Shown here piece after piece: positions 10,475 to 42,620 of a stretch of DNA of 64,000 nucleotides. The position numbers were made by a program, and so were the translations under genes. Within the stretch, counting starts at the first letter, position 1; each line of letters starts with the position of its first letter. The notes under the pieces were generated by a model, which was given only the letters and a program-made list of their open reading frames with translations, was not told the DNA's origin and made no database searches. Source of the DNA: a virus (taxonomy: Duplodnaviria > Caudoviricetes). The stretch lies in IMG/VR virus record IMGVR_UViG_3300021376_000006; one strand, written 5' to 3'.

Positions 10475-10789
10475 ATGAATACTATCGACGATATTGTGAC
10501 CGAAGTTCGTAGGGCCACAGATTTTCAAATCAACAAGCAGATTCTACGCGAAAAAATTCAAACAGATCTACATATGACTCATCGCGGCGGCATGTTCAAA
10601 ATAACACCAGAACTTTTGGCATTTGTGAAAACATGGCCTGTAGACGAACTTTATCTTGAAGACATTTACCAAAATCCCGTTCAAATTGATCGTCAAACAT
10701 TTCTTGTAACTGCACAACAGCACTATCAAACAGTAATGAACACTTGGCATCAAGAATATGAAGAACTCAAAAAAATCAGAAAAATCTAG
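10475..10789 (+). CDS. Hypothetical protein
   Basis: 104-aa ORF directly downstream of the promoter and overlapping the next gene. Confidence 0.6.
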   Translation: MNTIDDIVTEVRRATDFQINKQILREKIQTDLHMTHRGGMFKITPELLAFVKTWPVDELYLEDIYQNPVQIDRQTFLVTAQQHYQTVMNTWHQEYEELKKIRKI

Positions 10790-11546
10790 AGGCATCGTGG
10801 CATTTGCTTACAATGTTGATACAATTGATTATGTGTCAATTGCCAAAAATATTTTAGAGTTGGCTAGTCAACTACTTGGAATTCCGTATACTTTAATTAC
10901 AGATAAAGAATTTGAAAATACAAATTACACAATGCGTTGTGACGTAGACACTGGCGAATTTATTAAGTGGCGCAATGTAGGAAGACATCATGCATACGAG
11001 TTATCACCATATGACGAAACTTTAGTGATTGATGTGGATTATTTGATATTGGACAACAATTTAAATAAAATTTTTGATGTTAATTGGGATTATTTACTAG
11101 CAAGAACAAGCACTGCCTTGACAACCACTTGGTCCAGTCAAATGGGAGAAACCAGTTTACCGTATGTTTGGGCCACAGTGTTTGCTTTCCGGAAAACACC
11201 TCGAGCTCAGATGTTTTTTGATCTTGTGGGAAGAATTCAAAGAAACTATGCCTACTATTGTGCTTTGTTTAATGTGCAAGAACGAAATTTTAGAAATGAC
11301 TATGCATTTGCCATGGCAGACATAATTTTAAATGGATACGCTCTATATAAAAAATCTATTCCGGGCAGCATATTGGCAGTGGATCAACCAATTGAAAGTA
11401 TTTGTTTGTCAAACAAAAAAGTCATTGTCAAAGATAAAAATAGAGCCTATGTGTTACCACGTACAAATTTACACATAATGAGCAAAACTTATTTGCAAAG
11501 CGATGACTGCCAACAGTTTATCAATCAGGTGCTTGATGAGTCATAA
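10758..11546 (+). CDS. GT-A fold glycosyltransferase-like protein
   Basis: GIVAFAYN..DY N-terminus and LSPYDETLVIDVDYLI (DxD). Paralog of the next gene. Start uncertain. Confidence 0.6.
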   Translation: MKNSKKSEKSRGIVAFAYNVDTIDYVSIAKNILELASQLLGIPYTLITDKEFENTNYTMRCDVDTGEFIKWRNVGRHHAYELSPYDETLVIDVDYLILDNNLNKIFDVNWDYLLARTSTALTTTWSSQMGETSLPYVWATVFAFRKTPRAQMFFDLVGRIQRNYAYYCALFNVQERNFRNDYAFAMADIILNGYALYKKSIPGSILAVDQPIESICLSNKKVIVKDKNRAYVLPRTNLHIMSKTYLQSDDCQQFINQVLDES

Positions 11547-12330
11547 AGCACAATTGGGATTCTTAACTGTTGCTTGCAACACCGAACATGTTGATTATCT
11601 TAGATTGGCTTATTTACAGGCTGTAAATGTCAAACAAACACAAAAGAACAATCAATATGCTGTGATAGTCGACAGTGCTACTCTAACTAAAGTTAGTGAA
11701 GATCACAAAAAAGTTTTTGATTACGTGATTGAAGCACCAGACCATGCATTTGGACCTTTTGGCACAGAAGCATTTGCATTTGAATTGACACCATTTAAAG
11801 AAACCATAAAACTAGAAAGCGATTTGTTATTTACAAGAAGTATAGACCATTGGGTACATGCATTTAGATTACGAGATATGGTACTAAGTGTTGGCAGTAG
11901 AAATTATCAACAACAAATATCCAATGTTAGAAATTATCGAAAAGCATTTGATGATAACAATTTGCCTGATGTATATAATGGGTTGATGTATTTTAGATTT
12001 ACCAAGACAGCACGAGATTTTTTTGACACAACAAAACAAATATATAGTAACTGGAACACAATTGTTAACGAGTTAAAAAATTGTAGAGAATCTGTACCCA
12101 GCACAGACGTTGTTTTTGCTTTGGCTGCACAAATTGTCGGACGAGAACTTTGCACATTACCAAGCGCAGACTTTATAAATTTTGTGCATATGAAGCCTGC
12201 TATTAACGGATTCAACGAAGATTTAAAATTCAGTGAAGTGTTTGTAACTGAACAGGACACAGATATGATTAGAATCAACAATATCAATCAATATCATCCT
12301 ATACATTATTATGATAAAGAATTTTTATGA
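11536..12330 (+). CDS. GT-A fold glycosyltransferase-like protein (paralog, DxD changed to ESD)
   Basis: GFLTVACN...DY and LTPFKETIKLESDLLF align with the preceding gene. ATG at 11536 overlaps the upstream stop. Confidence 0.55.
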   Translation: MSHKAQLGFLTVACNTEHVDYLRLAYLQAVNVKQTQKNNQYAVIVDSATLTKVSEDHKKVFDYVIEAPDHAFGPFGTEAFAFELTPFKETIKLESDLLFTRSIDHWVHAFRLRDMVLSVGSRNYQQQISNVRNYRKAFDDNNLPDVYNGLMYFRFTKTARDFFDTTKQIYSNWNTIVNELKNCRESVPSTDVVFALAAQIVGRELCTLPSADFINFVHMKPAINGFNEDLKFSEVFVTEQDTDMIRINNINQYHPIHYYDKEFL

Positions 12331-12698
12331 GTGAAAATCTATGGGACGAAGTTGCTAGATTAGTGGCCGAGTATGATGCTGCTCGCCCAGTGATTACAAA
12401 AGAATATAGACTGTATTACAATCATGACGGAACCGTAATTGGACTTTGGGAGAGCAATCATCCCACCGGCGACAATTTTATTGTGTTAGATGATCCGGGC
12501 ATGTTTTATAGTGCAAATACTCTTTTACTACGAGTGCAAAATAAAAAATTAATTGTATTAGATCCGCGAGCACCTGCAAAAACACGATTACAAAAATCCA
12601 ATCAAGGATTTAGAGTAGTAAAAGGACATGCCGCTTTGATTTTAGAACAGGATGAAATCTATCCAGAAGTAGAATATTATGACCAAAAAAATAATTGA
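12327..12698 (+). CDS. Hypothetical protein
   Basis: 123-aa ORF with ATGA coupling. Confidence 0.55.
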   Translation: MSENLWDEVARLVAEYDAARPVITKEYRLYYNHDGTVIGLWESNHPTGDNFIVLDDPGMFYSANTLLLRVQNKKLIVLDPRAPAKTRLQKSNQGFRVVKGHAALILEQDEIYPEVEYYDQKNN

Positions 12699-13608
12699 TA
12701 TTGCAGATTTAGATTGTATCTTTTTAACTTATGACGAACCTAAAAAAGAAGAATTTTGGATTAGGATTCAAAACATGGTACCGTGGGCAAAGAGAGTTGA
12801 TGGAGTTAAAGGGTCTGATGCAGCGCATAAAGCAGCCGCTGCCGCGTCAGACACAGACCGTTTTGTTGTTATTGACGGAGACAATATTCCGGATCCAGAA
12901 TTTTTTAATCTACAACTATCGTTGGACGAGAGAAATCATGACCACGTTTTTAGGTGGAAGGCCAGGAATGCTGTAAACGGTTTAAGATATGGTAACGGTG
13001 GTGTAAGCTGCTGGACCAAGGATTTCGTTAATCGTATGCGAACACACGAAGCAAGTCTTGGGGATGAGGAAACTGCCGTTGAGTTTTGTTTTGATCCTAA
13101 GTATACAGCAATGCATAATTGTTATAGCACTACATATCCTAATGGTAGTTCCAAACAAGCATGGCGTGCAGGATTCCGTGAAGGTGTCAAGATGTGTCTT
13201 AACAGGGGACACAAGCCCACTCTACAAGAATTTGAAGAAGGTGTGAACAAAAGGAACTATGATAATTTATGTATATGGCACTCAGTGGGTGCAGATGTGG
13301 AAAATGGTTATTGGGCAATGTATGGAGCACGATTAGGCACATACATGATCATGCTTGAAGGGTGGGATCATCATTATGTTCAGGACTTTGACATGCTTGA
13401 AAAACTATGGACCAGTTTTAGTACTGAAGATCCTGAAGAAGGTTGTGCTAGGATCCAAGATGCATTAAAAAATAGATTAGGATTACCTATTGTTATGTAT
13501 ACACCAGAACAAAGTCAATTTTTTAAACATCACTACAGTATTGGGCAGCGTAATAGTGAAATTATGATGACTGAGATAGATGTAATTCGGAGGATCGAAG
13601 GATGGTAA
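12679..13608 (+). CDS. GT-A (GT2-like) glycosyltransferase-like protein
   Basis: DCIFLTYDEP, RVDGVKGSDAAHKAAA and FVVIDGDN (DxD). Homologous to the C-terminal domain of 29987..31846. Confidence 0.55.
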   Translation: MTKKIIDIADLDCIFLTYDEPKKEEFWIRIQNMVPWAKRVDGVKGSDAAHKAAAAASDTDRFVVIDGDNIPDPEFFNLQLSLDERNHDHVFRWKARNAVNGLRYGNGGVSCWTKDFVNRMRTHEASLGDEETAVEFCFDPKYTAMHNCYSTTYPNGSSKQAWRAGFREGVKMCLNRGHKPTLQEFEEGVNKRNYDNLCIWHSVGADVENGYWAMYGARLGTYMIMLEGWDHHYVQDFDMLEKLWTSFSTEDPEEGCARIQDALKNRLGLPIVMYTPEQSQFFKHHYSIGQRNSEIMMTEIDVIRRIEGW

Positions 13609-14561
13609 TTTTAGAAAATAAAGACACACATATTTTTAATTTGCCTGAAAAAATTGTAGATATTGTACACGAGTATACAAATACCGGCAAAGTAATTATT
13701 ACAACTAACTCAGAAGGTTTGTGTCTTTTGTCGGCTAATTTTTATAATACATTAGATTATGTTTGCTCTAAATTTCAAATTAGTAAAAAATCAATTATTA
13801 TAAAAACTTGTAATGTAGAAGAATTTCATCCAGAATACACAATAAAAATTTTAGATAATTATTATATAGATAGTTGTAAGCCTTATTTAAAAGTTAAATT
13901 ATTACAAAAAAATCATCAGTTACATACTGTAGGTTGTTTTATAGGAAAGCCAAATTGGCATAGATTAATAATATCGGCATGGCTTTACACAAATTTTAAT
14001 AATAAAATTCTGTTAACGTGTCACTATAATCCGCAAGATGAAAGACATTTAATTGACAGCGAGTTAACAATGTTAAATCAACTAGCTTTTAACGAATTAT
14101 CTACAGTAATACCATATATGAAAAAATGTCCTGTGTATTTAGATGAAGGATTTTTAGATTATACTATTGGACCACCAACTCATTATAATTTATTGCAAAA
14201 GTACACTGACATATTTTTAGATTTAGTAGTCGAAACATATGTAACTGGTAAAACATTTTTTCCTACCGAAAAAACTCTAAGACCTATTATAGCAAAAACT
14301 CCTTTTATAATAATGGGTCCTCAAGGATATTTGTCTAATCTTAGAAGAATTGGATATAAAACTTTTTCAAATTGGTGGAGCGAAGATTATGACAATTTTA
14401 ATGGGTATCAACGAATTTTAGAAATTAAAAAAATTTTAGAAAATGTATTTACATGGCCACATAGTAAATTAAATGATACTTTAAATGAAATGAATAATGT
14501 ATTAGATCATAATAGAACGGTATTACAATATATGAAAGGTAGTGAAGTAAAACTGTCATGA
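13602..14561 (+). CDS. GT10-like (GT-B) glycosyltransferase-like protein, copy 1
   Basis: DLVVETY..KTFFPTEKTLRPI..KTPFI..G....L..L...GYKTF..WW.EDYD resembles the fucosyltransferase EN...Y.TEK motif. Visibly AT-rich. Confidence 0.5.
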   Translation: MVILENKDTHIFNLPEKIVDIVHEYTNTGKVIITTNSEGLCLLSANFYNTLDYVCSKFQISKKSIIIKTCNVEEFHPEYTIKILDNYYIDSCKPYLKVKLLQKNHQLHTVGCFIGKPNWHRLIISAWLYTNFNNKILLTCHYNPQDERHLIDSELTMLNQLAFNELSTVIPYMKKCPVYLDEGFLDYTIGPPTHYNLLQKYTDIFLDLVVETYVTGKTFFPTEKTLRPIIAKTPFIIMGPQGYLSNLRRIGYKTFSNWWSEDYDNFNGYQRILEIKKILENVFTWPHSKLNDTLNEMNNVLDHNRTVLQYMKGSEVKLS

Positions 14562-15940
14562 CAAAAAGTATCTTTCTCTCTTCTGCGGAGGCTATGCAAG
14601 AAAAATTAGGTCCTGCGCTTTGTCTTGCTAAATGGCAACAGGTCAGTCTACATCTTCCAACAGGACTAACTAACAGTTGCTATCACCCTCCACTACACGA
14701 AATAGATGCCGCACTATTGAAAGATAATCCCAGTGCGCTACACAATACACCACACAAAAAAGAACAGCGTAAAATTATGTTACGCAATGAACGACCGCAG
14801 GAGTGTAGTTATTGCTGGACACAAGAAGACCTAGGCAATTTAAGTGACAGGCATTATCGTTCAGGCGAACCCTGGGCAGCGGAACATTTTGATCGTATCA
14901 TCAACAGTACCGGAGACGAAGATGAAATTCCAAGTTATGTGGAAGTCAATTTTAATAACGCTTGCAACCTTAAGTGTAGCTATTGCAGCCCTCAGTTTAG
15001 CAGCACTTGGGCTGACGAAATTGCTAGGTACGGAGCGTATCCCACTAGTAATCGTCATAATGACCCCACTTTTTTTATGGACCGCAGAAGGCCTACGCCC
15101 AATCGTGAGGATAATCCTTATGTTAACGCTTTTTGGGAGTGGTGGCCAAGTCTTTATCCACGGTTAAAACACTTTCGAATGACCGGCGGCGAACCTTTAA
15201 TGGATCGTAATACCTATCGTGTATTTGATTATGTATTGGCTTTTCCTAAATCCGATTTGCACATTGATGTGACCAGCAATTTCAGTGTGGAAGAAAAGTT
15301 ATGGGAACAATACTTCAATTATGTAAAACAGTTGTGTAATACCAATATAGAGCATTTTATGCAGTATGTGAGTTTGGACTCTGGTATCCCGGAGCAAGCA
15401 GAATATATAAGACACGGGATGGAATTCAAACGAGTTTTAGCCAGGGTCGAATTTTTCTTAAGACACATACCCGGTCGCAATAGTCTTACATTTATTATTA
15501 CTATGAATAATCTAAGTGTTTTAGGTTTGCGAAGACAATTAGAAACCATTCTTTCATTGAGAAGATACCATAGTACAACATATCAACGTGTTTGGTTTGA
15601 CACACCAATATTGAGACAGCCCACGTGGCAAAGCTTACAAATACTTCCTTCTGTATATGCACGTCGATTGCAAGATGTAGTAGATTGGATGCAGGAAAAC
15701 TCGGAGACTGTTGAACGTCCGTTTCAAGGATTCAAAGATTATGAAGTGCAAAGAATGCAACGGGTTCTAGATTGGATGCAAGAAGGTAGCAAATTAGACG
15801 CTGAATATGTTAAACTACAACGTGCTGATTTTTATAAATTCTTTAGTGAGCACGATAAACGAAGAGGAACCTGGTTTCTAAATACATTTCCAGAAATGCG
15901 AGAGTTCTGGAACGAATGCCAATATCATGCCCAAAATTAA
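14558..15940 (+). CDS. Radical SAM protein 1 with N-terminal Twitch-like Cys domain
   Basis: CNLKCSYC (CxxxCxxC) and TGGEP; N-terminal CLAKW..SCYH..CSYCW. Confidence 0.85.
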   Translation: MTKSIFLSSAEAMQEKLGPALCLAKWQQVSLHLPTGLTNSCYHPPLHEIDAALLKDNPSALHNTPHKKEQRKIMLRNERPQECSYCWTQEDLGNLSDRHYRSGEPWAAEHFDRIINSTGDEDEIPSYVEVNFNNACNLKCSYCSPQFSSTWADEIARYGAYPTSNRHNDPTFFMDRRRPTPNREDNPYVNAFWEWWPSLYPRLKHFRMTGGEPLMDRNTYRVFDYVLAFPKSDLHIDVTSNFSVEEKLWEQYFNYVKQLCNTNIEHFMQYVSLDSGIPEQAEYIRHGMEFKRVLARVEFFLRHIPGRNSLTFIITMNNLSVLGLRRQLETILSLRRYHSTTYQRVWFDTPILRQPTWQSLQILPSVYARRLQDVVDWMQENSETVERPFQGFKDYEVQRMQRVLDWMQEGSKLDAEYVKLQRADFYKFFSEHDKRRGTWFLNTFPEMREFWNECQYHAQN

Positions 15941-17282
15941 TAACGAAACAGATTTAGAATACAAGCGCAGAGTGATCGACATCAAGTCCAAATCATTCTG
16001 TGGAGCCAAATGGTATAATGCTACAATTTGGCTAGGATCAGGTATGACTACGTCATGTCATCACCCACTTCCTCACAAAGTTGATGTTGGAGATGTGCAA
16101 GTCAACCCCAGGACACTACACAATACATCTAAGAAAAAAGAAGAGCGTCGCCAAATGCAAGCGGGCGCAAGACCTACAGGTTGTGAATATTGTTGGAAGA
16201 TTGAAGACATTGATAGAAATAATATCAGTGATCGAGTTTACAAAACAGTAATTTACTCAGATGAGGACTTAAATTATGCGTACAACACAGACCCTAGCGA
16301 AGATATCAATCTTCGAACTCTTGAAATTAGTTTTGACCGCACTTGTCAGTTTGCTTGCTCTTATTGCAATCCTGCGTTCAGTAGCACTTGGGTTAAAGAC
16401 ATCAATACCCATGGACCCTACACTAATTTGGTGTCTGACGGCAGGAATCATTTTACTCATAGCCATGACAGTTCGCAGCTTTTTAAATATGGTGAAAATA
16501 ACCCATATGCAGAAGCCTTCTTTAGATGGTGGGAATCAGACCTCCACCAAACCTTAGACGAATTACGTATAACCGGAGGCGAGCCACTCATGTCCGGATA
16601 CACTTGGCAACTACTTGATTGGTTTCAACAAAACAAAGGTTGTAGCCAAACCAGACTTGCAATAAATTCTAACCTAGGAACACAAGTTGATCTCGATCGT
16701 TTATTTTCAAGTGTGGACACACCCATTGACCTATACACTAGTAATGAAAGCATCGGCCTACACTCAGAGTATATTAGAGACGGATTGGCCTGGGACGATT
16801 GGGCTAATACTGTAGAATTAATCTTAGACCATCAAATTGATCATAAACTACGTGCTTTGCACATCATGTGTACTATCAATGCACTGTGTTTAGACAGTTT
16901 AACAGACTTCTTGGAATGGGTAATTAATTTAAAACTATGCTATGGTCGAGAAGCGGTGAACTTTTCTTTAAATATCCTACGTTTTCCAAGTTTTCAATCT
17001 GCCCTAGTACTACCTAGCCAAATACGCACCAAGTATAAAGATCAACTTATAGACTTTATGGCTAGACACCAAGGTTCAGAGTTTGTACACGAATATGAAT
17101 GGAATCAGCTACAACGTTTGATTGATTATCTTGACGTGGTTAAAACTTCTCATACCGGAGCAGCAGAACAAGATGTATTACAAAAAGATTTCAAAAATTT
17201 TTATACACAATACGATATAAGAAGGAAAAAAGATTTTTGTAAAACTTTTCCTAATTTAGCTGATTGGTTCATTAACATATGA
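15927..17282 (+). CDS. Radical SAM protein 2 with N-terminal Twitch-like Cys domain
   Basis: CQFACSYC and TGGEP; N-terminal CGAKW..SCHH..CEYCW. Confidence 0.85.
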   Translation: MPKINNETDLEYKRRVIDIKSKSFCGAKWYNATIWLGSGMTTSCHHPLPHKVDVGDVQVNPRTLHNTSKKKEERRQMQAGARPTGCEYCWKIEDIDRNNISDRVYKTVIYSDEDLNYAYNTDPSEDINLRTLEISFDRTCQFACSYCNPAFSSTWVKDINTHGPYTNLVSDGRNHFTHSHDSSQLFKYGENNPYAEAFFRWWESDLHQTLDELRITGGEPLMSGYTWQLLDWFQQNKGCSQTRLAINSNLGTQVDLDRLFSSVDTPIDLYTSNESIGLHSEYIRDGLAWDDWANTVELILDHQIDHKLRALHIMCTINALCLDSLTDFLEWVINLKLCYGREAVNFSLNILRFPSFQSALVLPSQIRTKYKDQLIDFMARHQGSEFVHEYEWNQLQRLIDYLDVVKTSHTGAAEQDVLQKDFKNFYTQYDIRRKKDFCKTFPNLADWFINI

Positions 17283-18745
17283 GTGTAAAAGATTTTTACA
17301 ATAAAGGCTATGTGTATAATGCCCGTTCTCCTTATTTTATAGAAAAAGAAAAACTGTCAAACCAACATTGGCAACGTCTAACTGAAAGCAAAACATTCTG
17401 TATGATGCCCTGGGTTCATATGCATGCATTTCCAGATGGCCGTGCCTATCCGTGTTGTCTTGCAGATTACTGGCATCCAGTTGGAGATTTAAGAAAAAAT
17501 ACCATGGAAGAAGTTTGGAACCAAGACGCATACAAAACCATGCGTCAAAACATGTTAGAGGACAAATCGTGCAAAGAATGTACCAAGTGTTATGAACAAG
17601 AAGCAAATGGTTTCTTTAGTATGCGATACGATAGTAATCGTAATTATGGACATCATATAGCAGAAATAGATCAAACACTGCCAGATGGTACTCATCCAGA
17701 ATTCAAGATAAGGTATTGGGATGTCAGATTTAGCAATCTTTGTAATTTTAGTTGTCGCAGTTGCGGTCCAATTTTTAGTAGCAACTGGTATAATGATCAT
17801 GTTAAACTTTATAATCGTAAGCCCGATGTACTTGGCAGAGACATGGCACGAGTTGAATACACCGCCGGCGATGAAGACGCCATGCTCGAGCAAATGCTCC
17901 CCCATATTCCATATCTTGAACAAGTTTATTTCGCCGGCGGTGAACCTTTAATTATGAAGGAACATTATTTCTTATTAGAAAAGTTAATTGAACATGGCAA
18001 GACAGATATCAGGATTCAATACAATACAAATTTTAGTGAATTGAGATACAAAGATAAACATGTGTTTGACTATTGGAAGCACTTCAAAAACGTCAGCGTA
18101 GGTGCCAGCTTGGATGCCAGCGGAGAGCGTGCTGAACTCATGCGTAAAGGCACAGATTGGTCTCAAACACTAGAGAATCGACGACACATGATGCAAGAAG
18201 TTCCGCATGTTGATTTTTACGTCAGTGCCACTGTAAGTGCTATGAACGTATTACATGTATTAGATTTTCATCGTGAATGGACAGAACTAGGATTAATTCA
18301 AGCTAAAGATTTTAATATTAACTTGTGTCAGAGTCCTAACTGGTATCGTGCAAATATTTTTCCTAAAGAATTTAAAGATCAAGTAATTGTGCCTGCCTAT
18401 AAACGGCATCTTGACTGGCTACGACCAGTTGATTCACTTAAACGAGCTACAAATGGATACGAATCACTATTAAATTTTATTCAAACAAACAATTCAGATA
18501 TACAGGTTAACCTACAGGAATTTGAGTATGAAACTCAAAAAAGTTCGTCGTGGCCAGACTGGGAAGATTTTCAAAAAGGAAAAAGAACTGATGATGAAGA
18601 AATAAACAGAGAAATTGAAGAATTTGTAAAAGAAAAAAAACAAACTATTGAATTTGAAAGCTTTAAAGCACAAATCAAAAAACTAGACAGTGTTAGAAAT
18701 GAAAACTTTTGGAACACATTTCCTGAATTAAATGATCTTGCCTAA
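17279..18745 (+). CDS. Radical SAM protein 3 with N-terminal Twitch-like Cys domain
   Basis: CNFSCRSC and AGGEP; N-terminal CMMPW..PCC..CTKCY; roughly 50-aa C-terminal insertion. Confidence 0.85.
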   Translation: MSVKDFYNKGYVYNARSPYFIEKEKLSNQHWQRLTESKTFCMMPWVHMHAFPDGRAYPCCLADYWHPVGDLRKNTMEEVWNQDAYKTMRQNMLEDKSCKECTKCYEQEANGFFSMRYDSNRNYGHHIAEIDQTLPDGTHPEFKIRYWDVRFSNLCNFSCRSCGPIFSSNWYNDHVKLYNRKPDVLGRDMARVEYTAGDEDAMLEQMLPHIPYLEQVYFAGGEPLIMKEHYFLLEKLIEHGKTDIRIQYNTNFSELRYKDKHVFDYWKHFKNVSVGASLDASGERAELMRKGTDWSQTLENRRHMMQEVPHVDFYVSATVSAMNVLHVLDFHREWTELGLIQAKDFNINLCQSPNWYRANIFPKEFKDQVIVPAYKRHLDWLRPVDSLKRATNGYESLLNFIQTNNSDIQVNLQEFEYETQKSSSWPDWEDFQKGKRTDDEEINREIEEFVKEKKQTIEFESFKAQIKKLDSVRNENFWNTFPELNDLA

Positions 18746-19946
18746 AACAATATGTATGCTTCCATGGGTAAGCATTGAAACCAGTCCTATTGGTACTGCT
18801 AGACCTTGCTGCTTGGCCAGAAACGAAATCACAAACAGTGATGGTAACAAGTTTGATCTTAACAAAGACAATTTAGAAAACATTTATCACAGTGAATACA
18901 TGCAAAATCTTCGTAGACAATTTAGAGCCGGAGAAAAGCCTAGCACTTGTAAATTGTGTTGGGACGAAGAGGCAGCCGGTAGAACAAGTAAAAGAATACA
19001 CAGTAGGGTAAGATTAAAAGAATTATATGAGTTAGTTGATTGGGCAAATGACGATCCGGATCAACTTTGGTTTCTGGATTTAAAGTTGGGAAATATTTGT
19101 AATCTTAAATGTAGAATATGCGGATCTTGGTCTAGCAGTAAATGGGCAGCAGAAGAACTAGATTATATGCCAAAAGATTTTGATAAAAAGTCGCATATTG
19201 CCTATCAGTGGCTACGGCAAGGTGCGTGGCCAAGAAACAAAGATACAAATTTTTGGGATAATCTAAAAACACTATTGCCTAATATCAAGTATCTTGAATT
19301 CACTGGTGGCGAACCTTGGTTAATTGAAGAACACTTTGATTTATTAAAATACGCAGTTGCACAAGGATACAGTAAAAATATTGATATACATTATAATACA
19401 AATGCTACCCAGATGCCCGGAGAGTTTGATGCTGTCATTTGGCAAGAGTTTGGTCGTGTAGATATTGCATTTAGTATTGACAATGTGGGTGCCAGATTTG
19501 AATACGAACGGTACGGCGCTAAATGGGAATTGGCAAATGAAATTATTGATTATGTACATTACAGCCAAGTCACGATGCCAAACATTACTACACAACTTTG
19601 TTTTACCATAAATGTGCAAAATGTTTACTATCTTGATGAATTATTAGCGTGGGCAGATACCAAACCGTTTGGCAGCGTGTATTTTAACATGATGCATAGC
19701 CCAGATCATATGAGTGTACAGCATATGACGCCACAGGCTCAAGACTTGGTTTTAAATAAATTAAAAACTCATTTTTGGCAAAATAAAAATTATTTGAAAG
19801 AAGTTGACAATGTAATAAAATTTATCGAACAAGGCCCAGGTAGTGACGGCTCCGAATTTCGAGAAAAAATGCAAAGAACAGATACTTATAGAAAACAAAA
19901 TTTTAAAAATACACATTCAGAAATAGCATTGGCAATGGGGTATTAA
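18732..19946 (+). CDS. Radical SAM protein 4 with N-terminal Twitch-like Cys domain
   Basis: CNLKCRIC and TGGEP; N-terminal CMLPW..PCC..CKLCW. Confidence 0.85.
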   Translation: MILPKTICMLPWVSIETSPIGTARPCCLARNEITNSDGNKFDLNKDNLENIYHSEYMQNLRRQFRAGEKPSTCKLCWDEEAAGRTSKRIHSRVRLKELYELVDWANDDPDQLWFLDLKLGNICNLKCRICGSWSSSKWAAEELDYMPKDFDKKSHIAYQWLRQGAWPRNKDTNFWDNLKTLLPNIKYLEFTGGEPWLIEEHFDLLKYAVAQGYSKNIDIHYNTNATQMPGEFDAVIWQEFGRVDIAFSIDNVGARFEYERYGAKWELANEIIDYVHYSQVTMPNITTQLCFTINVQNVYYLDELLAWADTKPFGSVYFNMMHSPDHMSVQHMTPQAQDLVLNKLKTHFWQNKNYLKEVDNVIKFIEQGPGSDGSEFREKMQRTDTYRKQNFKNTHSEIALAMGY

Positions 19947-31846: not shown

Positions 31847-32924
31847 TTTGTTCTACAATTGTTTCAACTTCGCTATCTAAAAGTTCGGGATAGATAGGCA
31901 GGCTAAGACATTCTCGAGTAAAGGCAGCAGTTTCTGTGAATAAATCTTTTCCGTAATCTATGTAATTAAATCCTACACCTAAATCATACAGAGCAGATTC
32001 ATAATGTATTTTTGTTTCTATTCCTTGTCTGGCCAGATGACCCATTAAAGCTGACCTGTTATTAGTTCTAATTACAAATTTGTGCCAGGCATGTTCGACG
32101 CCCTTGTTTGGTACCGAAATGTCAACAAATTGATATAATTCGTTAATATAATAATCAGCTATCTCTTTGCGCCTCCTCTGCCACGAATCAAAATGTTGTA
32201 ATTTGATAAGCATTTGAGCACAATCACTTTCGCTCATTTTGCTATTGGTTCCTGGAGTGTCGTGGATACTTTTACCATTGTCCCTGAGAGTTCGACATGT
32301 CTCATATATATGATAGTCGTCGGTTAGAATCATTCCGCCGCTACCGTAATTGTTCAAGTTTTTAGTTGGATCAAAACTCAAAACACTGATATCGCCGAGT
32401 TTTCCACTAGGAACGCCCTGATAACTTGCTCCGAAACTTTGTGCAGCATCTTCGATAATAATTAAATCATCATTAAAGAATCTGGTCTGCATTTGAAACC
32501 TGTCCCAGTCTACACAGTTGCCAAACAAATTAACATACATGACAGCGCCAACACTTTGATCAAGCTTATATTCGTAGCTATCAAGATCAATTAGTCCTTT
32601 GTGATCGATATCACAAAACACTGGAGTAAAATTATTCATTAGCACACTATTGATAGTAGCCACAAAACTCACAGTAGGAATTAAAATTGAATATGGCGGT
32701 CTGGACACCGCGGCCATTTGTGCAAAAATCAATGCTTGTGTTCCAGAATTGACTGCTAATGCATATGCTCTGTTACACCGTTTTGCTATTTTATTTTCAA
32801 AGTGTTCTGTGTAAGCGCCATCGAGGACGCGACCGGTAGAGTACACCCGATCTGTTATTTCTAATATTTCTTCGCGAATATTTTGGTACTGTCTATGAAT
32901 TCCGAAAAAAGGAATTACTTGCAT
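31824..32924 (-). CDS. DegT/DnrJ/EryC1/StrS PLP-dependent sugar aminotransferase
   Basis: AVNSGTQAL, IIEDAAQSFG, SFDPTKNL..YGSGGMI, LSLPIYP. Confidence 0.9.
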   Translation of the reverse strand: MQVIPFFGIHRQYQNIREEILEITDRVYSTGRVLDGAYTEHFENKIAKRCNRAYALAVNSGTQALIFAQMAAVSRPPYSILIPTVSFVATINSVLMNNFTPVFCDIDHKGLIDLDSYEYKLDQSVGAVMYVNLFGNCVDWDRFQMQTRFFNDDLIIIEDAAQSFGASYQGVPSGKLGDISVLSFDPTKNLNNYGSGGMILTDDYHIYETCRTLRDNGKSIHDTPGTNSKMSESDCAQMLIKLQHFDSWQRRRKEIADYYINELYQFVDISVPNKGVEHAWHKFVIRTNNRSALMGHLARQGIETKIHYESALYDLGVGFNYIDYGKDLFTETAAFTRECLSLPIYPELLDSEVETIVEQIKFYIDS

Positions 32925-33889
32925 AATCTAGACTGCCAATAATCTGATTGTTGAAACCATTCATAATAGCGTTGGAATCCTTCTTCAACGTTGACCCTAG
33001 GCGAATAACCAAAATCTTGTGTGGCGCGATCGATATTAAGTCTTCCTCGCTTAGGAAAATTCAAATCTCGATCTTGTATTTCAATCGAGCCTTTGCCGGC
33101 TATTGCAATTGCCAACTCGGCTGCATCGCATAATGTATATTGACGTTCTGCACTTCGAGTAATATTATAAATTTTATTTGCACTATATTTACTGCAGGTT
33201 GCTTGAACAATTCCCAAAGCAGCATCCTCGACATAAGTGAAATCTAATACTTCATTGGCACCTTTAACTTTGAGAGTTTCGCCTTTCATTGCTGTTAGCA
33301 TAAATTTTGATACTACACGGTCCTCTACATCCCATTCGCCATAAACTGCACTAGGACGAATAATTACCGATTCAAAACCGTGTTGACGAGCATAATCTTC
33401 GACCAGTTTTTCGCCCATGTATTTCATAATGCCATATTGGCCAATTGGATTGCATACAGCATCTTCTGTTACATCTGTTTCAAAGTCGCCGTATACCATG
33501 CTAGAACTAATATAAACAAAACGTTTTACTCGATGAGTTGCTGCTGCTTCGAGTAAATTAATCAATCCGGTGCTCATCACTTCACTGGCTACAACAGGAT
33601 TTCGACCAACAACTTTTTGTCTAGGAAAACTAGCCAGATGTATAATAGTGTCACAGCCAAAAACACCAACACGACTTTTAATATCATCACCATTGCGTAT
33701 ATCGCCAACTAACGGTGTTGCACGTATTCTTGATAATCTTTCTCGTATCAAATAATCTAATTCGTCTTGTGGAACGAATCCATAGTTGGTACGACTATCG
33801 ACTCCAAAACATTCAATGCCATGTTTTTCTAATTGTTGTACTACATTATGACCAATAAAGCCCGCACTACCTGTTATAAAAACTTTCAT
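32915..33889 (-). CDS. NAD-dependent epimerase/dehydratase (extended SDR)
   Basis: ITGSAGFIG, YISSSMVYG, YGIMK (YxxxK), IIRPSAVYG. Confidence 0.9.
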   Translation of the reverse strand: MKVFITGSAGFIGHNVVQQLEKHGIECFGVDSRTNYGFVPQDELDYLIRERLSRIRATPLVGDIRNGDDIKSRVGVFGCDTIIHLASFPRQKVVGRNPVVASEVMSTGLINLLEAAATHRVKRFVYISSSMVYGDFETDVTEDAVCNPIGQYGIMKYMGEKLVEDYARQHGFESVIIRPSAVYGEWDVEDRVVSKFMLTAMKGETLKVKGANEVLDFTYVEDAALGIVQATCSKYSANKIYNITRSAERQYTLCDAAELAIAIAGKGSIEIQDRDLNFPKRGRLNIDRATQDFGYSPRVNVEEGFQRYYEWFQQSDYWQSRLCK

Positions 33890-34518
33890 TGTAATTTATA
33901 TTCTATATAAAAAATTGGATAATCGTTAACTGGTGAATTGGTTTGATAACAATTAGTTCGTTGTAAGTTAACTAAAAATTTATCAAAGGTATCACGGTTA
34001 CACCCCCATGAACTCTCTTGTAACAGTATTACACCGTCCGGGGTTAGATGTTTGGAAATGTTGTTAAAAAATTCTTTATGTATAACCCAATCTAGATCTA
34101 AATAAATTCTAGGATCGTTTCTTAACACAATTTCTTGATAATTTACTGGCTTAGAAAAGTGTGGAGGATTTGCCACCACCAGATCAAATTTTTTGGTTAT
34201 TGGTAAACTAGAAATTTTATCTGTGCAATAAGTGGTAACATTTAAATTAGTATTATAACATGATAAACTATGTGTAGCAAAATTCAAAGCAGATTGATGT
34301 TGATCTACTAGTGTTAATTCTTTGCAGTAATTGTTTAATAATAAATCAAATCCAATAAAGCCAGGGCCCGAACACCATTCTAAGCAGCATTTGAATTCGC
34401 GATGAGCATAGTGTGTGTTTAGAATATTTTTAAAATCTAATCCAATTGATGTTCCGCCGCCGTCAACATCATCTTCATAATGTAACTGAAAATCTCCTAT
34501 ATCAAATATACGTTTCAT
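33886..34518 (-). CDS. Class I SAM-dependent methyltransferase (NPPH motif)
   Basis: LEWCSGPGFIG (motif I) and FDLVVANPPHF (motif IV, amino-methyltransferase type). Confidence 0.75.
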   Translation of the reverse strand: MKRIFDIGDFQLHYEDDVDGGGTSIGLDFKNILNTHYAHREFKCCLEWCSGPGFIGFDLLLNNYCKELTLVDQHQSALNFATHSLSCYNTNLNVTTYCTDKISSLPITKKFDLVVANPPHFSKPVNYQEIVLRNDPRIYLDLDWVIHKEFFNNISKHLTPDGVILLQESSWGCNRDTFDKFLVNLQRTNCYQTNSPVNDYPIFYIEYKLQ

Positions 34519-34745
34519 AAAAATTTTAATCTAAAGTAGATTTCTGCTTCTGGATTAAGATTTCCCGTAATAACTACACGATACCCAAGAGTGTCATGGT
34601 CGGGCGTGACATGAAAAGTGGGCTCAGAAGTCACGTTCTCCATTATCCATTTGCCTTTTTCTGTTTCTTGCCATTCTCCAATAGGAAAGGCAGCATACAG
34701 ATAAGGATCCTCAACATCTGCCATGTGAAAGCTATGTAGTATCAT
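34515..34745 (-). CDS. Hypothetical protein
   Basis: 76 aa, ATGA-coupled on both sides. Confidence 0.55.
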   Translation of the reverse strand: MILHSFHMADVEDPYLYAAFPIGEWQETEKGKWIMENVTSEPTFHVTPDHDTLGYRVVITGNLNPEAEIYFRLKFL

Positions 34746-35818
34746 AATAAATGTATTTTATTTTGTATTATTTGATTAATGTCATTAAACAATTCTGTCT
34801 TTATGCTTTTATAGGCACTAGGCCAAGACCAAAAAAGATTTTGGTTATGTTCTAGTATAGGTAAAATTTCACGATGTAATTTTTCTAATTTGTTCACTGA
34901 CCAAGTTGACATTTCTAAAAGTAAATGAAAAATAGCTTCTAGTCTGTAATTTCCTGCTAAACTATCGTAATCTTCATCCCAAAAATTAGCAAAAGTTTGA
35001 AATCCTAAATCTTGTAACATTTTTAGAGAACCAGGATTGCCGTGTAAAATAAATGGGTGCCCAAACACTATAGGTTTAAAAATTTTTTCTGTAAAATATG
35101 GAAACGGTTGATCGTCATAGGTTTCAAATACTACAGAACAAAATGTATCTTCATAGTATTTTTTATCTCCTATAGACCAATCATTTATTTCAAATTTGTC
35201 CCCCTTAATTGTAAACGGTATATTATTATGCAGTTTGTGTAAATCTAGATTTTTACAGAACCATGCGGTATGACTACTTAGCATTTCTTCGGATATTTCG
35301 TCGTAAGACTTATATTTTGATCTTTCAAGCTCTCCTAAATAACTAAAATATGATTTTTCGATTAAATTAAATTTTACAAAAAAATAATATAGTGATTGTC
35401 TTGCTACAGATGCTCTGTTATTAAGAGAAAGAAAATGAAATTTGATATTTTTTTTTAATTCTACCTTTTGAAAATGGTCAGTATAATAGTTGTAGATAAG
35501 TGGTTGATACAAGAAAGAAAAAAAATCTTGATATTCATCGAAAAGAGATTGAGGATATTTGTGAGAGTGGACAATAATGTAATAATTTTTTAATTTTCCA
35601 GTCATTTCATAATGACTTTTGCTATTAGCTAAAATTTCTTCGATCCAGTCATAAGTATGATATTCTAAATAAAGTAAGATGATAATTTTGCCTTCTATGT
35701 CGGCAAAAGAGTTCATAGTATCATCATTTGGATCGTGCGTTTGTAAAACAAAAACTTTATCGCTGGTGATTTTAAAATCATCTAATAATGTAGGAACGCT
35801 ACACATTTGCGCGGTCAT
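34742..35818 (-). CDS. GT10-like glycosyltransferase-like protein, copy 3
   Basis: SVVFETY..PYFTEKIFKPIVFGHPFILHG...LKMLQDLGFQTFANFWDEDYD. AT-rich. Confidence 0.55.
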   Translation of the reverse strand: MTAQMCSVPTLLDDFKITSDKVFVLQTHDPNDDTMNSFADIEGKIIILLYLEYHTYDWIEEILANSKSHYEMTGKLKNYYIIVHSHKYPQSLFDEYQDFFSFLYQPLIYNYYTDHFQKVELKKNIKFHFLSLNNRASVARQSLYYFFVKFNLIEKSYFSYLGELERSKYKSYDEISEEMLSSHTAWFCKNLDLHKLHNNIPFTIKGDKFEINDWSIGDKKYYEDTFCSVVFETYDDQPFPYFTEKIFKPIVFGHPFILHGNPGSLKMLQDLGFQTFANFWDEDYDSLAGNYRLEAIFHLLLEMSTWSVNKLEKLHREILPILEHNQNLFWSWPSAYKSIKTELFNDINQIIQNKIHLL

Positions 35819-36729
35819 ACAGCCATCCGGGCCTTGATAGCACCATGGCTTTGATATCCTTCGAGTCGAATATCAGACATGGTAAATTTTGTAATATCAG
35901 TTATCTCAGGATTGAGCCACAATTGCGGTGCAGGCAATGGTTCACGTGTCAACTGTTCTTTTACTTGCTCTACATGATCTAGGTATATGTGTGCGTCGCC
36001 TAGAACGTGAACAAACTCTCCTACATCCAAATCACACACTTGTGCAATCATTGCTGTTAGTAGCGAATAGCTGGCGATATTAAAAGGTACACCCAAAAAC
36101 ATATCGCAGGATCGCTGATACATCTGGCACGACAATCTTCCATCTGCTACATAAAACTGTGCAAAACAATGACACGGTGGCAGGGCCATTTGATCTAATT
36201 CTCCAGGATTCCATGCAGTTAATATGTGTCGTCGTCCGTGCAGATCTTGCTTAATACCGTCGATTAAATTTCGTAGTTGATCGACTTCTTTAATTTCAAC
36301 GTTATTGCCTACTCTTCGGTAAGTGCTTCCAAACCCGTCTTTGAAAGATCCTTCTGTTTCGCGTTCTTTGATAGTACGCCAATGTCTCCACTGTACTCCG
36401 TACACACGACCTAGATCTCCTTCAAATTGGGCCCGCGATCGCCAATATGGTGCTAGTGCATTGGGCGTCCATATAGTTACTGTACCATCCCGTGTGCCAT
36501 GCGTTATCTCAGCCAATCTACGTTCATCGCCTGAACCTTCAATCATCCATAATAGTTCGCCCACCACAGCATTCCATGCTAGTTTTTTTGTAGTTACAGC
36601 AGGAAAACCTTGACTTAAATCATAACGTTGCTGCATACCAAACTTGCTTATGGTACCTACACCCGTGCGATCATCTTTGCGTGTTCCTGTTTCTAATATA
36701 TCTTTAAGAACATTGTGGTATGTTTTCAT
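35815..36729 (-). CDS. thyA: Thymidylate synthase
   Basis: DRTGVGT, TTKKL, GRVYGVQWR, LPPCH, YQRSCDMFLGVPFNIASY, HIYLDH. Confidence 0.95.
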   Translation of the reverse strand: MKTYHNVLKDILETGTRKDDRTGVGTISKFGMQQRYDLSQGFPAVTTKKLAWNAVVGELLWMIEGSGDERRLAEITHGTRDGTVTIWTPNALAPYWRSRAQFEGDLGRVYGVQWRHWRTIKERETEGSFKDGFGSTYRRVGNNVEIKEVDQLRNLIDGIKQDLHGRRHILTAWNPGELDQMALPPCHCFAQFYVADGRLSCQMYQRSCDMFLGVPFNIASYSLLTAMIAQVCDLDVGEFVHVLGDAHIYLDHVEQVKEQLTREPLPAPQLWLNPEITDITKFTMSDIRLEGYQSHGAIKARMAV

Positions 36730-37442
36730 AAGTTTAATTTTTCTCGAATATGATTAAATAAAATTTTATGTCCATTATGATTAGGATGCACTCCATCTGG
36801 GTAAAAGACACTTTCTCTAAATACCAATGAATTCGTTTCTTGATACAAATAAAAATCTTCAATCACATTCTTTGCCTGTAGATCGTTAAACAATTTTAAA
36901 TCAACTAATTCAATTCTGCAGTTTGGATTTGATAATATTCTAAATTTGTTATCTATTGTGTTACTATACTCATTAAAATGACCTACTAATATATTAACCC
37001 ACGAAGATACTATAGGAATAAGATTATTATAATTAGAAATAGAGTAATCTAAATTGTTAAGTGCTCCAATCATATAAATTTTCCTATTGAATTGTTTGCA
37101 TAGATTGTTAAGCATATTATAAGTTGAATCTAGTAAGATGTCAACTAACCCTGATAGACTTTGGTTCTCTTGTAGGCATTTAGTGAGACTATTTTTAGTA
37201 AAAAATGTATCTCTAGTTGCGTCTGTAGTTATAAAAAATATAAAGTCACTGCGGTCTATATTAACTATTTCTTTACTTAACAAACGTACTAAATTAAGAT
37301 TAGAACTGGCCGGACGACTTAGATTTATAACGGTGTAACCTAAATTACTTAGAAAGAATTCTAGACCTTTGTGAATTATTTTGTGATTTTCCCATACTCC
37401 GGCACCCCAACTATCGCCAAAGATATAAATTTTTCTTGGCAT
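36726..37442 (-). CDS. SGNH/GDSL-like protein, copy 6
   Basis: FGDSWGAG, LSRPASSN, DGVHPNHNGH. AT-rich; sits between folA and thyA. Confidence 0.6.
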   Translation of the reverse strand: MPRKIYIFGDSWGAGVWENHKIIHKGLEFFLSNLGYTVINLSRPASSNLNLVRLLSKEIVNIDRSDFIFFITTDATRDTFFTKNSLTKCLQENQSLSGLVDILLDSTYNMLNNLCKQFNRKIYMIGALNNLDYSISNYNNLIPIVSSWVNILVGHFNEYSNTIDNKFRILSNPNCRIELVDLKLFNDLQAKNVIEDFYLYQETNSLVFRESVFYPDGVHPNHNGHKILFNHIREKLNL

Positions 37443-37942
37443 TATCTAAAAATATCTATATTTTTATAAATGCAAAAGTTTAAAGTTTTATCGGCACTAG
37501 GGCGTGAACTTGTTATACGCATACCCATCATAAAAGATCGTAAGTCAATACGAACATCCGAAAAAGCTGCGCCTCGCCTGTGGGTTACATAAGCGTAATC
37601 AATTAAATCCTTGCATTCCATTATGATACTAGGGCCACCTAGAATAAACACATTTTTCTTTGGATATAATTCTTGTAAATTTTTAATTGCGTCCTTATAA
37701 TCACCATGTAATCTACGTACACCTGAGTGCTGTAAAGGTTGATTAGAAACAACACAATTTATTCTATCAGGTAAAGGTTTACTCATTTTAGGATCATCCC
37801 AAGTGTTACGGCCCATTACAACTATTTGATTGAGGGTGTGCTCACGAAACCATTCCATATCTTCTGAATGTATTGGCCATGGCAAGGTTCCACGGTTACC
37901 AAATGTTCCCAATTGGTCTGTGGCGAATATGGTGCAAATCAT
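37442..37942 (-). CDS. folA: Dihydrofolate reductase
   Basis: GTFGNRGTLPW, DMEWF, VVMGRNTW, PLPDRINCVVS, ILGG. Confidence 0.9.
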   Translation of the reverse strand: MICTIFATDQLGTFGNRGTLPWPIHSEDMEWFREHTLNQIVVMGRNTWDDPKMSKPLPDRINCVVSNQPLQHSGVRRLHGDYKDAIKNLQELYPKKNVFILGGPSIIMECKDLIDYAYVTHRRGAAFSDVRIDLRSFMMGMRITSSRPSADKTLNFCIYKNIDIFR

Positions 37943-37945
37943 TTT

Positions 37946-38776
37946 TTATAATCTTTCTGGGATAAATTTTTCAAAAAAATAAGGTTGTTTTTGAGTAATT
38001 TTTTTATCAATATCCCGCACCCAATTTACTGTAGATTCATTTATATCTAAGTTAGTTATAAATTTAAGTGCGGTTAAATGTTCTAATGGGGTTGGATGGC
38101 TGTCTTGTGCTGTATTAGTGAAGTATAAATGTTTATTATTACCTATAAGTTGCAAAAAAGAATCAACTTCGTTATTTATTGATGTATTATAAACAGTTCT
38201 ATCATAAGAAAAAATATCAATTAGTTTTGGCCAATCAACACCTGCGTGTCTATCGTATAAATCTTGTAATTTATGTTGTGCTGTTAAAGAAACTTCTTTT
38301 GACACTATCGGAAAATTAATTTTACGAATTTTCTTTAGGGTATCTCTATATAATGAGCCTGCTTTAGAATATAAATCATAATCTAAAAAACTTAAAAAAG
38401 AGTAACTACTTTTTGATGATGAAAGTATTTTGTCTATAGCTGTGAATAATGCATAACTTATAATTTCTGCTCCATTTGGACAACTGACAGGTGACTTAGT
38501 GTCAAATATAGAATGATAATGACTCCATTCATTCATTTGATAATAGTCAATTCGAGTTATTCCGGACCACATTACAATTACGGTGTCGTCTTCGGTAAAA
38601 GTTTTTTTGATAAGACATTCAATAATTGAATTAAATATAAAGTTGTTTCCTGCACCTGGTCTAGCCCAGTTTTCAAAATAATCATATTCTTTACCTAGTA
38701 TGTCCGCCCAAGTAGGCCAACTATATGAAGTCATACTACAACCAAAGGTGTATAAATTGCCTTTGCGACTTTTCAT
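37946..38776 (-). CDS. SGNH/GDSL-like protein, copy 7
   Basis: FGCSMTSY, WARPGAGN, MWSGITRID, DSHPTPLEH. Confidence 0.55.
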   Translation of the reverse strand: MKSRKGNLYTFGCSMTSYSWPTWADILGKEYDYFENWARPGAGNNFIFNSIIECLIKKTFTEDDTVIVMWSGITRIDYYQMNEWSHYHSIFDTKSPVSCPNGAEIISYALFTAIDKILSSSKSSYSFLSFLDYDLYSKAGSLYRDTLKKIRKINFPIVSKEVSLTAQHKLQDLYDRHAGVDWPKLIDIFSYDRTVYNTSINNEVDSFLQLIGNNKHLYFTNTAQDSHPTPLEHLTALKFITNLDINESTVNWVRDIDKKITQKQPYFFEKFIPERL

Positions 38777-42617: not shown

Positions 42618-42620
42618 AAT

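Follow-up and report, generated by a model that had tools for sequence, protein, structure and literature searches.

What does a phage build with some 28 kb of genes for sugar-modifying enzymes placed just after its tail-fibre genes? The question is raised by positions 10475-38776 of a 64-kb stretch of viral DNA (IMG/VR record IMGVR_UViG_3300021376_000006; 64,000 nucleotides, hereafter the window) from a large, T4-like, uncultured freshwater phage. A reading made from the letters alone (the sequence-only reading) had proposed one assembly line here, making a glycan that is aminated, acylated, carbamoylated, sulfated and methylated. Here we consider this island gene by gene and across related genomes. 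A sugar- or glycan-tailoring set is supported: glycosyltransferase folds of the GT-A type, an aminotransferase, a short-chain dehydrogenase/reductase (SDR) and a carbamoyltransferase (CT) are encoded by coupled genes that are conserved as a block. Our best explanation, held tentatively and at somewhat less than an even chance, is a cytoplasmic pathway that builds or edits a sugar structure, the acceptor of which is most likely made by the phage itself, with a virion protein such as one of the fibres encoded upstream as the leading candidate.

Layout and conservation of the block

Proteins were assigned to families with Pfam and NCBIfam, and paralogs were found by all-against-all blastp among the island proteins, which grouped a set of SGNH-like proteins, three proteins with a common C-terminal region, and the protein encoded at 12679 with the C-terminal part of that encoded at 29987. 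The earlier gene list is largely real, apart from two labels ('GT10-like' and 'APS kinase') that were not confirmed; absent from it were genes for dCMP deaminase, thymidylate synthase (ThyA) and dihydrofolate reductase (DHFR), as well as two small open reading frames (ORFs) at 23791-23892 (+) and 34515-34757 (-). Rather than forming a single unit, the 28-kb stretch falls into a plus-strand operon (10475-28808), two divergent genes and a minus-strand operon. Most genes are translationally coupled, as had been claimed: 20 of the 21 junctions in the plus-strand operon overlap or abut, and past the head of that operon there is no gap of 25 nt or more. The minus-strand operon is shared with nucleotide-metabolism genes. 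With genes for dCMP deaminase, thymidylate synthase and DHFR interspersed among the others, the stretch as a whole is a mosaic. In the divergent pair, 28714-29988 (-) and 29987-31846 (+), the start codons overlap head to head in the letters CATG (29986-29989), so that the promoter of each gene must sit inside the other; the same overlap is seen in relatives (e.g. locus L005, 14076/14077).

Dozens of related jumbo-phage contigs carry the block with its genes in the same order. Relatives of the CT were found on 111 viral contigs, at 61-88% identity, and 31 of the 67 loci with a full upstream flank carry before it five genes for radical S-adenosylmethionine (SAM) enzymes (R1-R5) and one for a protein that we call Y, in the order R1-R2-R3-R4-R5-Y. 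A further 16 of the 67 have R2-R5-Y, with R1 probably beyond the flank, and most of the others are variants with extra copies. Downstream of the CT, the usual order is a member of the TEK-motif family described below (-), a GT-A protein (+), the aminotransferase (-) and the SDR (-), with thyA and the DHFR gene frequently coming next; many loci have the core but not the nucleotide genes. On the left arm, a fibre gene, a fibre-like gene and the genes for a 104-aa protein, two GT8-like proteins and a GT-A protein are colinear in all five records examined, of which two are 92% or more complete; a 123-aa protein is encoded in four of the five, and R1 comes next in the three that reach far enough. 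Synteny across related large phage genomes, proposed earlier as a check, thus gave a fixed R1-R5 order, and the claimed position behind tail-fibre genes holds both here and in all five records. The relatives of the window phage include IMG/VR contigs of 260-354 kb, and megablast of 30 kb of the window against 50,697 deposited phage records returned no near-identical genome.

Homologues of the CT were found in 142 phage records, including 'Nol-like' CTs of cyanophages and pelagiphages that are 25-36% identical. The cultured Ralstonia phage RsoM2USA carries a reduced cassette, at about 123.4-129 kb of MG752970, in the order SGNH, radical SAM, SGNH, micro-ORF, SGNH, CT; its single radical SAM enzyme is an ortholog of R2 (49% identical) and its CT is 45% identical.

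Radical SAM enzymes and protein Y

R1 (14558-15940), R2 (15927-17282), R3 (17279-18745), R4 (18732-19946) and R5 (20662-21951), all on the plus strand, score 307, 285, 387, 336 and 280 bits, respectively, against the NCBIfam family NF033640 (N_Twi_rSAM), for which the curated cut-off is 170 bits. The claim of five Twitch-type radical SAM enzymes at 14558-21951 is thus borne out. As in that family, a four-cysteine N-terminal domain precedes the CxxxCxxC motif: four invariant N-terminal cysteines, then CxxxCxxC and GGEP, occur in all five proteins. R1 has the twitch domain at its N-terminus, with CNLKCSYC at 136 and GGEP at 210, and in R3 Pfam places SPASM (41-104) ahead of Radical_SAM (150-314). 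R2 has more than 8000 metagenomic relatives, and R5 is the most conserved of the five (median ortholog identity 72%). Since orthologs are 45-87% identical whereas paralogs within the island are 20-32% identical, the five enzymes appear to have old and distinct functions. The nearest solved enzymes to the family profile (SkfB, MoaA, viperin and BtrN) match at only E 1e-4 to 4e-3, and the literature that we searched for a characterized N-terminal-twitch radical SAM enzyme, or for a phage island of this kind, held passing mentions only.

Protein Y (21920-23020 (+)) is always encoded directly after R5. Its model (pLDDT 87.7) found no match in the PDB by Foldseek, while VIA returned cyclophilins and the Pictet-Spenglerases McbB and KslB at Z 7-8.6; these structural comparisons point to a barrel of the cyclophilin type, into which a helical bundle with invariant His and Glu residues is inserted. 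Atlas gave Cyclophil_like2 for this protein, another look-up gave unannotated viral clusters only, and its relatives in the AlphaFold DB (E 1.6e-23) carry no informative annotation. Among 185,579 species genomes, Y occurred only on contigs of metagenome-assembled genomes (MAGs), e.g. those of a beta-proteobacterium, Chitinophagaceae, Legionella and Pacearchaeota. Because these taxa are incoherent, we read the contigs as mis-binned phage DNA, and a cellular home for Y was rejected.

The carbamoyltransferase and its small partner

The anchor of the block is an O-carbamoyltransferase of the NodU/CmcH/TobZ type (25167-26648 (+)). Both Pfam domains lie above their gathering scores, in agreement with the earlier assignment: PF02543 at 2.4e-38 and 132.9 bits (cut-off 24), and PF16861 at 3.6e-46 and 157.3 bits (cut-off 27). 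The alignment has an invariant HHxxH. Against the NodU equivalog NF041651 the protein reaches 128 bits, with a cut-off of 1000, so it is a member of the superfamily and not NodU itself.

Within the same operon, an unannotated ORF of 33 codons (23791-23892 (+)) encodes a micro-protein ending in DPFIYK; the ribosome-binding site of this ORF reads AAGGA, and the start codon that follows overlaps its stop codon. The ORF is present in 82 of 95 loci, often ATGA-joined to the start of the CT gene, and the C-terminal half of its product is nearly invariant. Over 62 distinct DNA versions, variation amounts to 24.0 bits at third codon positions, 8.5 at first and 3.4 at second positions; judged by this pattern, it is a real gene under purifying selection. 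In RsoM2USA (MG752970), a micro-ORF ending in DPFIYK was missed in the deposited annotation; it lies between RsoM2USA_201 and _200 (locus L100, 19014-19136), just upstream of an SGNH gene and the CT. Beside the CTs of P-SSM2 and HTVC008M, no PFIY micro-protein was found.

The micro-protein is predicted to bind the CT as a small subunit. A model of the complex scored 0.67, and the best of three controls 0.00; in calibration, 58 of 80 solved complexes and two of 110 mismatched pairs attained this mark, counts that hold only roughly here because custom alignments were used. At least 95% of contacts are common to the runs, the partner has a pLDDT of at least 78, and the modelled contacts fall on residues that are invariant on both sides (219-223 of the CT; 17-18 and 29-32 of the peptide).

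It is plausible, from a comparison of profiles, that the peptide is an analogue of SxtK/DUF5989 that lacks the membrane helix. Pfam PF19451 (DUF5989) did not match it at E <=5; hhalign against six DUF5989 sequences gave an end-to-end alignment in which 18 residues are deleted from the phage peptide (P 0.0012, probability 19%). An N-terminal LW...RKK and a C-terminal PFIY are common to both, and the hydrophobic helix of about 20 residues in DUF5989 is not in the phage peptide, which has a basic helix instead. In bacteria, DUF5989 is encoded in 147 of 401 Bacteroidota genomes sampled, just after a CT homologue in 16 of 16 fetched loci; these neighbouring CTs are 31-34% identical to the phage CT. 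The literature searched gave no function for the bacterial CT-DUF5989 pair. In the saxitoxin cluster, SxtJ and SxtK have been assigned as putative helpers of the carbamoyltransferase SxtI (PMC2679770).

Glycosyltransferase-like proteins

Four GT-A-like proteins had been claimed, and sequence profiles and a structural model suggest that this is a fair count. Two are GT8-like paralogs. The protein at 10758-11546 (+) has an invariant DVD at 92-94 and aligns by hhalign with the family of its neighbour at 11503-12330 (+) (98.2%, E 3.6e-14); the latter has ESD in the place of DxD, and its profile matches 17 entries of glycogenin (GT8), at best at E 0.003 over residues 2-107. The third protein, at 12679-13608 (+), has a canonical DGD at 66-68, is among the best-conserved of the island (ortholog identity 64-89%), and is homologous to the C-terminal GT-A domain of the fourth (hhalign 99%, E 4.5e-18).

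That fourth protein, encoded at 29987-31846 (+), has 619 residues in three domains, and the GT-A fold is seen in its model (pLDDT 87.9). Foldseek matched it, at a probability of about 1, to K4CP, LH3, Mimivirus R699 and SunS, and it also returned heparosan synthase. VIA aligned about 140 positions of residues 386-585 with B4GALNT1, a Leptospira glycosyltransferase, WrtF and SpsA (Z 10-11.8, rmsd about 3 Å), and the same residues also match sugar nucleotidyltransferases of this fold. A DxD motif is absent over the full 619 aa, with an invariant Ala-Lys at the site in the last domain. For this protein Atlas gave unannotated viral clusters only, and profile searches of the PDB with alignments A1, A2 (the TEK family), A3 and A8 (the family of 10758) returned nothing meaningful.

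The three genes that had been labelled 'GT10-like', at 13602-14561 (+), 28714-29988 (-) and 34742-35818 (-), do form a real family, by blastp paralogy and by an alignment with an invariant E...TEK...P..G, but the likeness to GT10 comes down to the donor-binding TEK motif. Pfam PF00852 (GT10) matched none of 31 members at E <=0.1 and none of 10 long relatives, and hhalign against four true GT10 proteins from Bacteroidota genomes aligned 23 columns around TEK (P 0.0065, probability 5.8%). The nearest annotated clusters in Atlas are GT10 with a feature score of only 0.80, which is a lead only. The family has 13,369 relatives at 50% clustering, mostly viral and unannotated. Atlas also shows the TEK domain fused, in other phages, to an MTS methyltransferase or to an SDR epimerase, fusions that match the minus-strand order here (TEK protein, small ORF, methyltransferase, SDR, aminotransferase). 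The TEK-motif proteins are probable transferases using nucleoside diphosphate (NDP)-sugars.

SGNH-like proteins

Seven SGNH-like proteins had been counted, and all seven stand. On the plus strand they are encoded at 19947-20672 (a GCS variant of block I, with a blastp match to the protein at 23889), 22998-23837, 23889-24557 (DUF6071; PF19547 at 5e-14), 24536-25201 (DUF6071; PF19547 at 1.1e-7, with Lipase_GDSL matches) and 26645-27349, and on the minus strand at 36726-37442 (between thyA and the DHFR gene; GDSL-like, PF00657 at 5e-6 over its full length) and 37946-38776. Those at 22998, 26645 and 37946 were recognized by blastp paralogy and, with that at 19947, by the SGNH alignment. An eighth SGNH/DUF6071-like paralog lies outside the island, at 48116-48802 (-), among early-type genes. 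Across the eight paralogs, the Ser of block I, the Asn of block III and the His of block V are invariant, and the profile gives weak but consistent matches to SGNH esterases in the PDB (E 0.005-0.03). The proteins had been taken as evidence of acylation, and for that reaction the case is weaker: the GDSL protein SxtL of the saxitoxin cluster, the gene for which adjoins the CT gene, is a putative decarbamoylase, thought to remove carbamoyl groups (PMC2679770).

Sugar-nucleotide, accessory and nucleotide genes

The claimed DegT aminotransferase and NDP-sugar epimerase are both well founded. The former, at 31824-32924 (-), matches PF01041 at 8.7e-79 (265.8 bits over 15-360) and is a DegT/PseC-like NDP-sugar aminotransferase, nearest to PseC (2e-51) and below every equivalog cut-off. 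The latter, at 32915-33889 (-), is an extended SDR of the NDP-sugar epimerase/oxidoreductase type (SDR epimerase family, 3e-41) with SSSMVYG and YxxxK motifs, and is without the Asp-Glu of 4,6-dehydratases.

Other genes are accessory. A methyltransferase gene is indeed present at 33886-34518 (-), and its product is of the HemK/RsmC (MTS) type with NPPH at 117-120. This motif marks an N-methyltransferase and, because the gene is found in two of 84 related loci, it is accessory; as evidence of a methylated glycan it is therefore weak. The 'APS kinase' (27369-27800 (+), Walker A at 9-16) proves to be a generic small P-loop kinase: adenosine 5'-phosphosulfate (APS) kinase, PSTK and KTI12 match equally well and only over its first 80 or so residues (4-85), and against apsK it scores 28 bits, with a cut-off of 139, PSTK giving the same score. 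The adjacent HxGH nucleotidyltransferase (27736-28338 (+)) has the motif as described (HAGH at 101-104), but its best matches are nicotinamide mononucleotide (NMN) adenylyltransferases. Kinase and nucleotidyltransferase occur in 30 and 20 of 84 loci; that they are a frameshifted fusion was rejected, since a related locus (L044) has them in reverse order. Because the kinase is generic and no sulfotransferase or sulfurylase is among the Pfam and NCBIfam matches in the island, sulfation is unsupported. In the list of modifications proposed earlier, amination and carbamoylation are thus upheld by the aminotransferase and the CT, methylation and acylation are weak, and sulfation is without support. 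The only sulfotransferase-like gene in the window lies outside the island and adjoins deazaguanine and replication genes; it encodes a 207-aa protein (59936-60559 (-)) with a weak match to Sulfotransfer_2 (E 2.4e-4, just below cut-off).

The nucleotide-metabolism genes are those for a dCMP deaminase (28335-28808, in the plus-strand operon; Pfam), thymidylate synthase (35815-36729; 357 bits, equivalog cut-off 327) and DHFR (37442-37942; Pfam). Because ThyA is above the equivalog cut-off and DHFR is encoded beside it, the pair represents a genuine route to dTMP, as opposed to a hydroxymethylase. Two proteins of the left arm have no Pfam match: the 104-aa product of the first gene of the operon (10475-10789 (+)), with orthologs 31-85% identical at the same position in five of five related records, and a 123-aa protein (12327-12698 (+)), with orthologs 37-65% identical in four of five. 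The apparent 223-nt gap at 34519-34741 was rejected as a regulatory region, as it is filled by the small ORF at 34515-34757 (-), of about 69-76 aa.

Upstream of the island lie genes for a virion structural protein of 1253 aa and for fibre-like proteins that are rich in Thr, Gly, Asn and Ser, with matches to PHROG tail-fiber families at 2.6e-8 and 1e-7. The fibre-like genes (5764-10410 (+)) have a GC content of 42-46%, compared with about 36%, and their Gly/Thr/Ala/Ser/Asn-rich products are without cysteine; the last of them (9433-10410; 16% Thr) ends 64 nt ahead of the island promoter. Downstream of the island are genes for a DNA polymerase, an exonuclease, a QueE-like radical SAM enzyme and GTP cyclohydrolase. 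A second sugar set, separate from the island, lies there among 7-deazaguanine genes (49592-55971 (-)) and comprises a QueE-like radical SAM enzyme, FolE, a 203-aa DegT-like protein, a true GalE (280 bits, cut-off 262) and an uncharacterized 397-aa protein.

Promoter and localization

The island had been said to start at its own promoter, and this holds: a sigma-70-like promoter, TTTACA-N18-TATAAT at 10416-10445 (+), agrees at 11 of 12 positions, better than any other site in 9-29 kb, and a sigma-70-like promoter is found at the equivalent place in five of five relatives. In the window, a 12-bp inverted repeat with arms at 10428-10439 and 10449-10460 has the -10 box in its loop. The island has no copy of the T4 late motif TATAAATA, at gene starts or elsewhere, and the motif is under-represented in the 64-kb window (two matches, 7.7 expected). 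Ahead of the fibre gene at 7792 stands CATAAATA. Further downstream, short intergenic regions before several genes at 41001-45433 (-) hold TATAAT-type -10 boxes, e.g. TGCTATAAT. None of the island proteins has a hydrophobic segment of transmembrane strength, one borderline internal stretch in an SGNH protein being the nearest to one, and lipid-carrier, flippase or polymerization functions were not found in the island.

What the pathway acts on

Taken together, these genes suggest the following course. The SDR and the aminotransferase would produce an amino sugar nucleotide, and sugars would be transferred by the GT-A and TEK-motif proteins. Each radical SAM enzyme would make one edit by C-H activation, be it ketone oxidation, epimerization, dehydration or C-C/C-methyl chemistry. 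A hydroxyl would be carbamoylated by the CT, held by its 33-residue partner, which may have lost the membrane helix carried by its bacterial counterpart, and the SGNH proteins would add or remove ester or carbamate groups. A cytoplasmic, phage-made acceptor is most likely because genes for lipid-carrier, flippase and polymerization functions are lacking and because the CT partner is helix-less; we rank it as the likeliest target, at modest odds, with the host envelope second and nucleic acid or a small molecule third. Virus-encoded, cytoplasmic glycosylation of capsid or fibril proteins is known from chloroviruses, Mimivirus and mycobacteriophages, which counts in its favour. Several observations weigh against it. 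Adjacency to fibre genes could be just the conserved gene order of T4-like genomes. With a sigma-70-like promoter and no TATAAATA in the island, expression may be early and apart from the virion genes; such sequence features hint that expression is early or continuous, and this makes a role confined to the virion slightly less likely. The 619-aa protein, being without DxD, may be no transferase. RsoM2USA has no glycosyltransferase match near its cassette, so the core chemistry may not need phage glycosyltransferases. The literature searched gave no N_Twi_rSAM member with a tested reaction, and soluble glycosyltransferases of the O-antigen type can use host lipid-linked intermediates, which keeps the host envelope in play as a target.

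In that case, soluble enzymes would add unusual NDP-sugars to lipid-linked intermediates of the host's O-antigen or capsule, and host flippases and polymerases would export the product and so change the cell surface, for example to block superinfection or to reduce the trapping of progeny. Such a role has been proposed for the glycosyltransferases of pelagimyophage host recognition clusters, where radical SAM cassettes also occur (PMC7029224), and GT8-like and GT2-like folds, typical of enzymes of lipopolysaccharide (LPS) synthesis, as well as the conserved promoter that suggests early expression, would suit such remodelling. We nevertheless consider it unlikely: all enzymes are soluble, the 28 kb encode no membrane protein at all, and the CT partner is without the membrane helix of its bacterial counterpart, which speaks against an envelope pathway that is complete in itself. 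In known seroconverting phages the proteins used, Gtr or Oac, are membrane proteins, and the block is strongly kept across phages with probably different hosts, which a phage-internal substrate fits better. The early-type promoter and the solubility of all enzymes would also suit the modification of nucleic acids or nucleotides, in which the block decorates a modified base, e.g. a 7-deazaguanine from the cluster at 49.6-60 kb, or makes a nucleotide. The dCMP deaminase, ThyA, DHFR and NMN adenylyltransferase-like genes are interleaved, QueE-like and FolE genes lie 12-25 kb off, and the methyltransferase has the N-methylating NPPH motif, as used on bases. Yet the true ThyA/DHFR/dCMP deaminase set speaks against glycosylated pyrimidines, as does the lack of a base-hydroxymethylase; the island encodes neither TGT/DpdA nor a DNA glycosylase-like protein nor a DNA kinase, the deazaguanine cluster has sugar genes of its own, and the nucleotide genes are missing from many related loci with the core. 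The DNA sugar transferases of T-even phages are moreover of the GT-B and not the GT-A type, and we regard this role as improbable. The last candidate is a diffusible sugar-like or aminocyclitol-like metabolite (antibiotic-like, a signal or an enzyme inhibitor) tailored by the core. The CT, small partner, GDSL protein and P-loop kinase parallel sxtI-J-K-L-O of the saxitoxin cluster (PMC2679770), RsoM2USA has its reduced cassette without a glycosyltransferase match, and twitch radical SAM and DegT enzymes recall aminoglycoside pathways, though by analogy only (BtrN, E 0.004). Given at least seven transferase-like genes, no scaffold enzyme (cyclase, polyketide synthase or non-ribosomal peptide synthetase), no exporter, and a block that is kept next to fibre genes, this seems the least probable of the candidates, and quite improbable.

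A narrower form of the preferred reading, a phage-made acceptor in the cytoplasm, would make the core a so far undescribed viral pathway that decorates the virion of the phage itself, e.g. its fibres, with a radical-edited, carbamoylated sugar. We consider this possible but doubtful. If true, it would give the N_Twi_rSAM family its first function, and would be a case of a membrane-anchored bacterial CT system made cytosolic by a phage through loss of the anchor helix of its small subunit. More broadly, the block is abundant among jumbo phages from fresh water and the sea, and its signature enzymes are without an established reaction. A product that decorates virions would mean that environmental phages have a further, new level of host recognition or protection, and one acting on the host surface or DNA would represent a new chemistry of takeover or anti-defence. 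For biochemistry, the N_Twi_rSAM enzymes and the CT-micro-subunit pair are well-defined targets, and RsoM2USA offers a culturable, reduced version.

Comparison with known systems

New here are the full colinear core with its left arm, the fold evidence for two proteins, the early-type promoter, and the predicted pairing of CT and micro-protein with its apparent parallel in DUF5989. The block nevertheless resembles several known systems in part. BtrN, BtrR and TobZ, to which the island had been likened, represent the same types of chemistry, but the relation in sequence is marginal (BtrN, E 0.004), the twitch domain of BtrN is C-terminal whereas those of the phage enzymes are N-terminal, and the phage has neither 2-deoxy-scyllo-inosose synthase nor any other aminocyclitol gene of the aminoglycoside pathways. 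With SxtI, SxtK, SxtL and the APS kinase SxtO of the saxitoxin module, the phage shares a CT with a tiny partner ending in PFIY and with GDSL/SGNH neighbours; it differs in being without SxtJ and the rest of that pathway, and in a peptide without the membrane helix. The virion glycosylation systems of chlorovirus PBCV-1, Mimivirus and mycobacteriophages likewise use virus-encoded, soluble and often multi-domain GT-A proteins together with amino-sugar enzymes, and one of the proteins to which Foldseek matched the 619-aa phage protein is Mimivirus R699; to our knowledge, none of these systems has radical SAM arrays, a carbamoyltransferase or SGNH families. A further parallel is found in the host recognition clusters and LPS-type genes of marine T4-like myoviruses, in which glycosyltransferases and radical SAM cassettes stand beside tail-fibre genes (PMC7029224). 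The clusters of pelagimyophages and cyanomyophages are described as hypervariable, whereas the block described here is strongly colinear.

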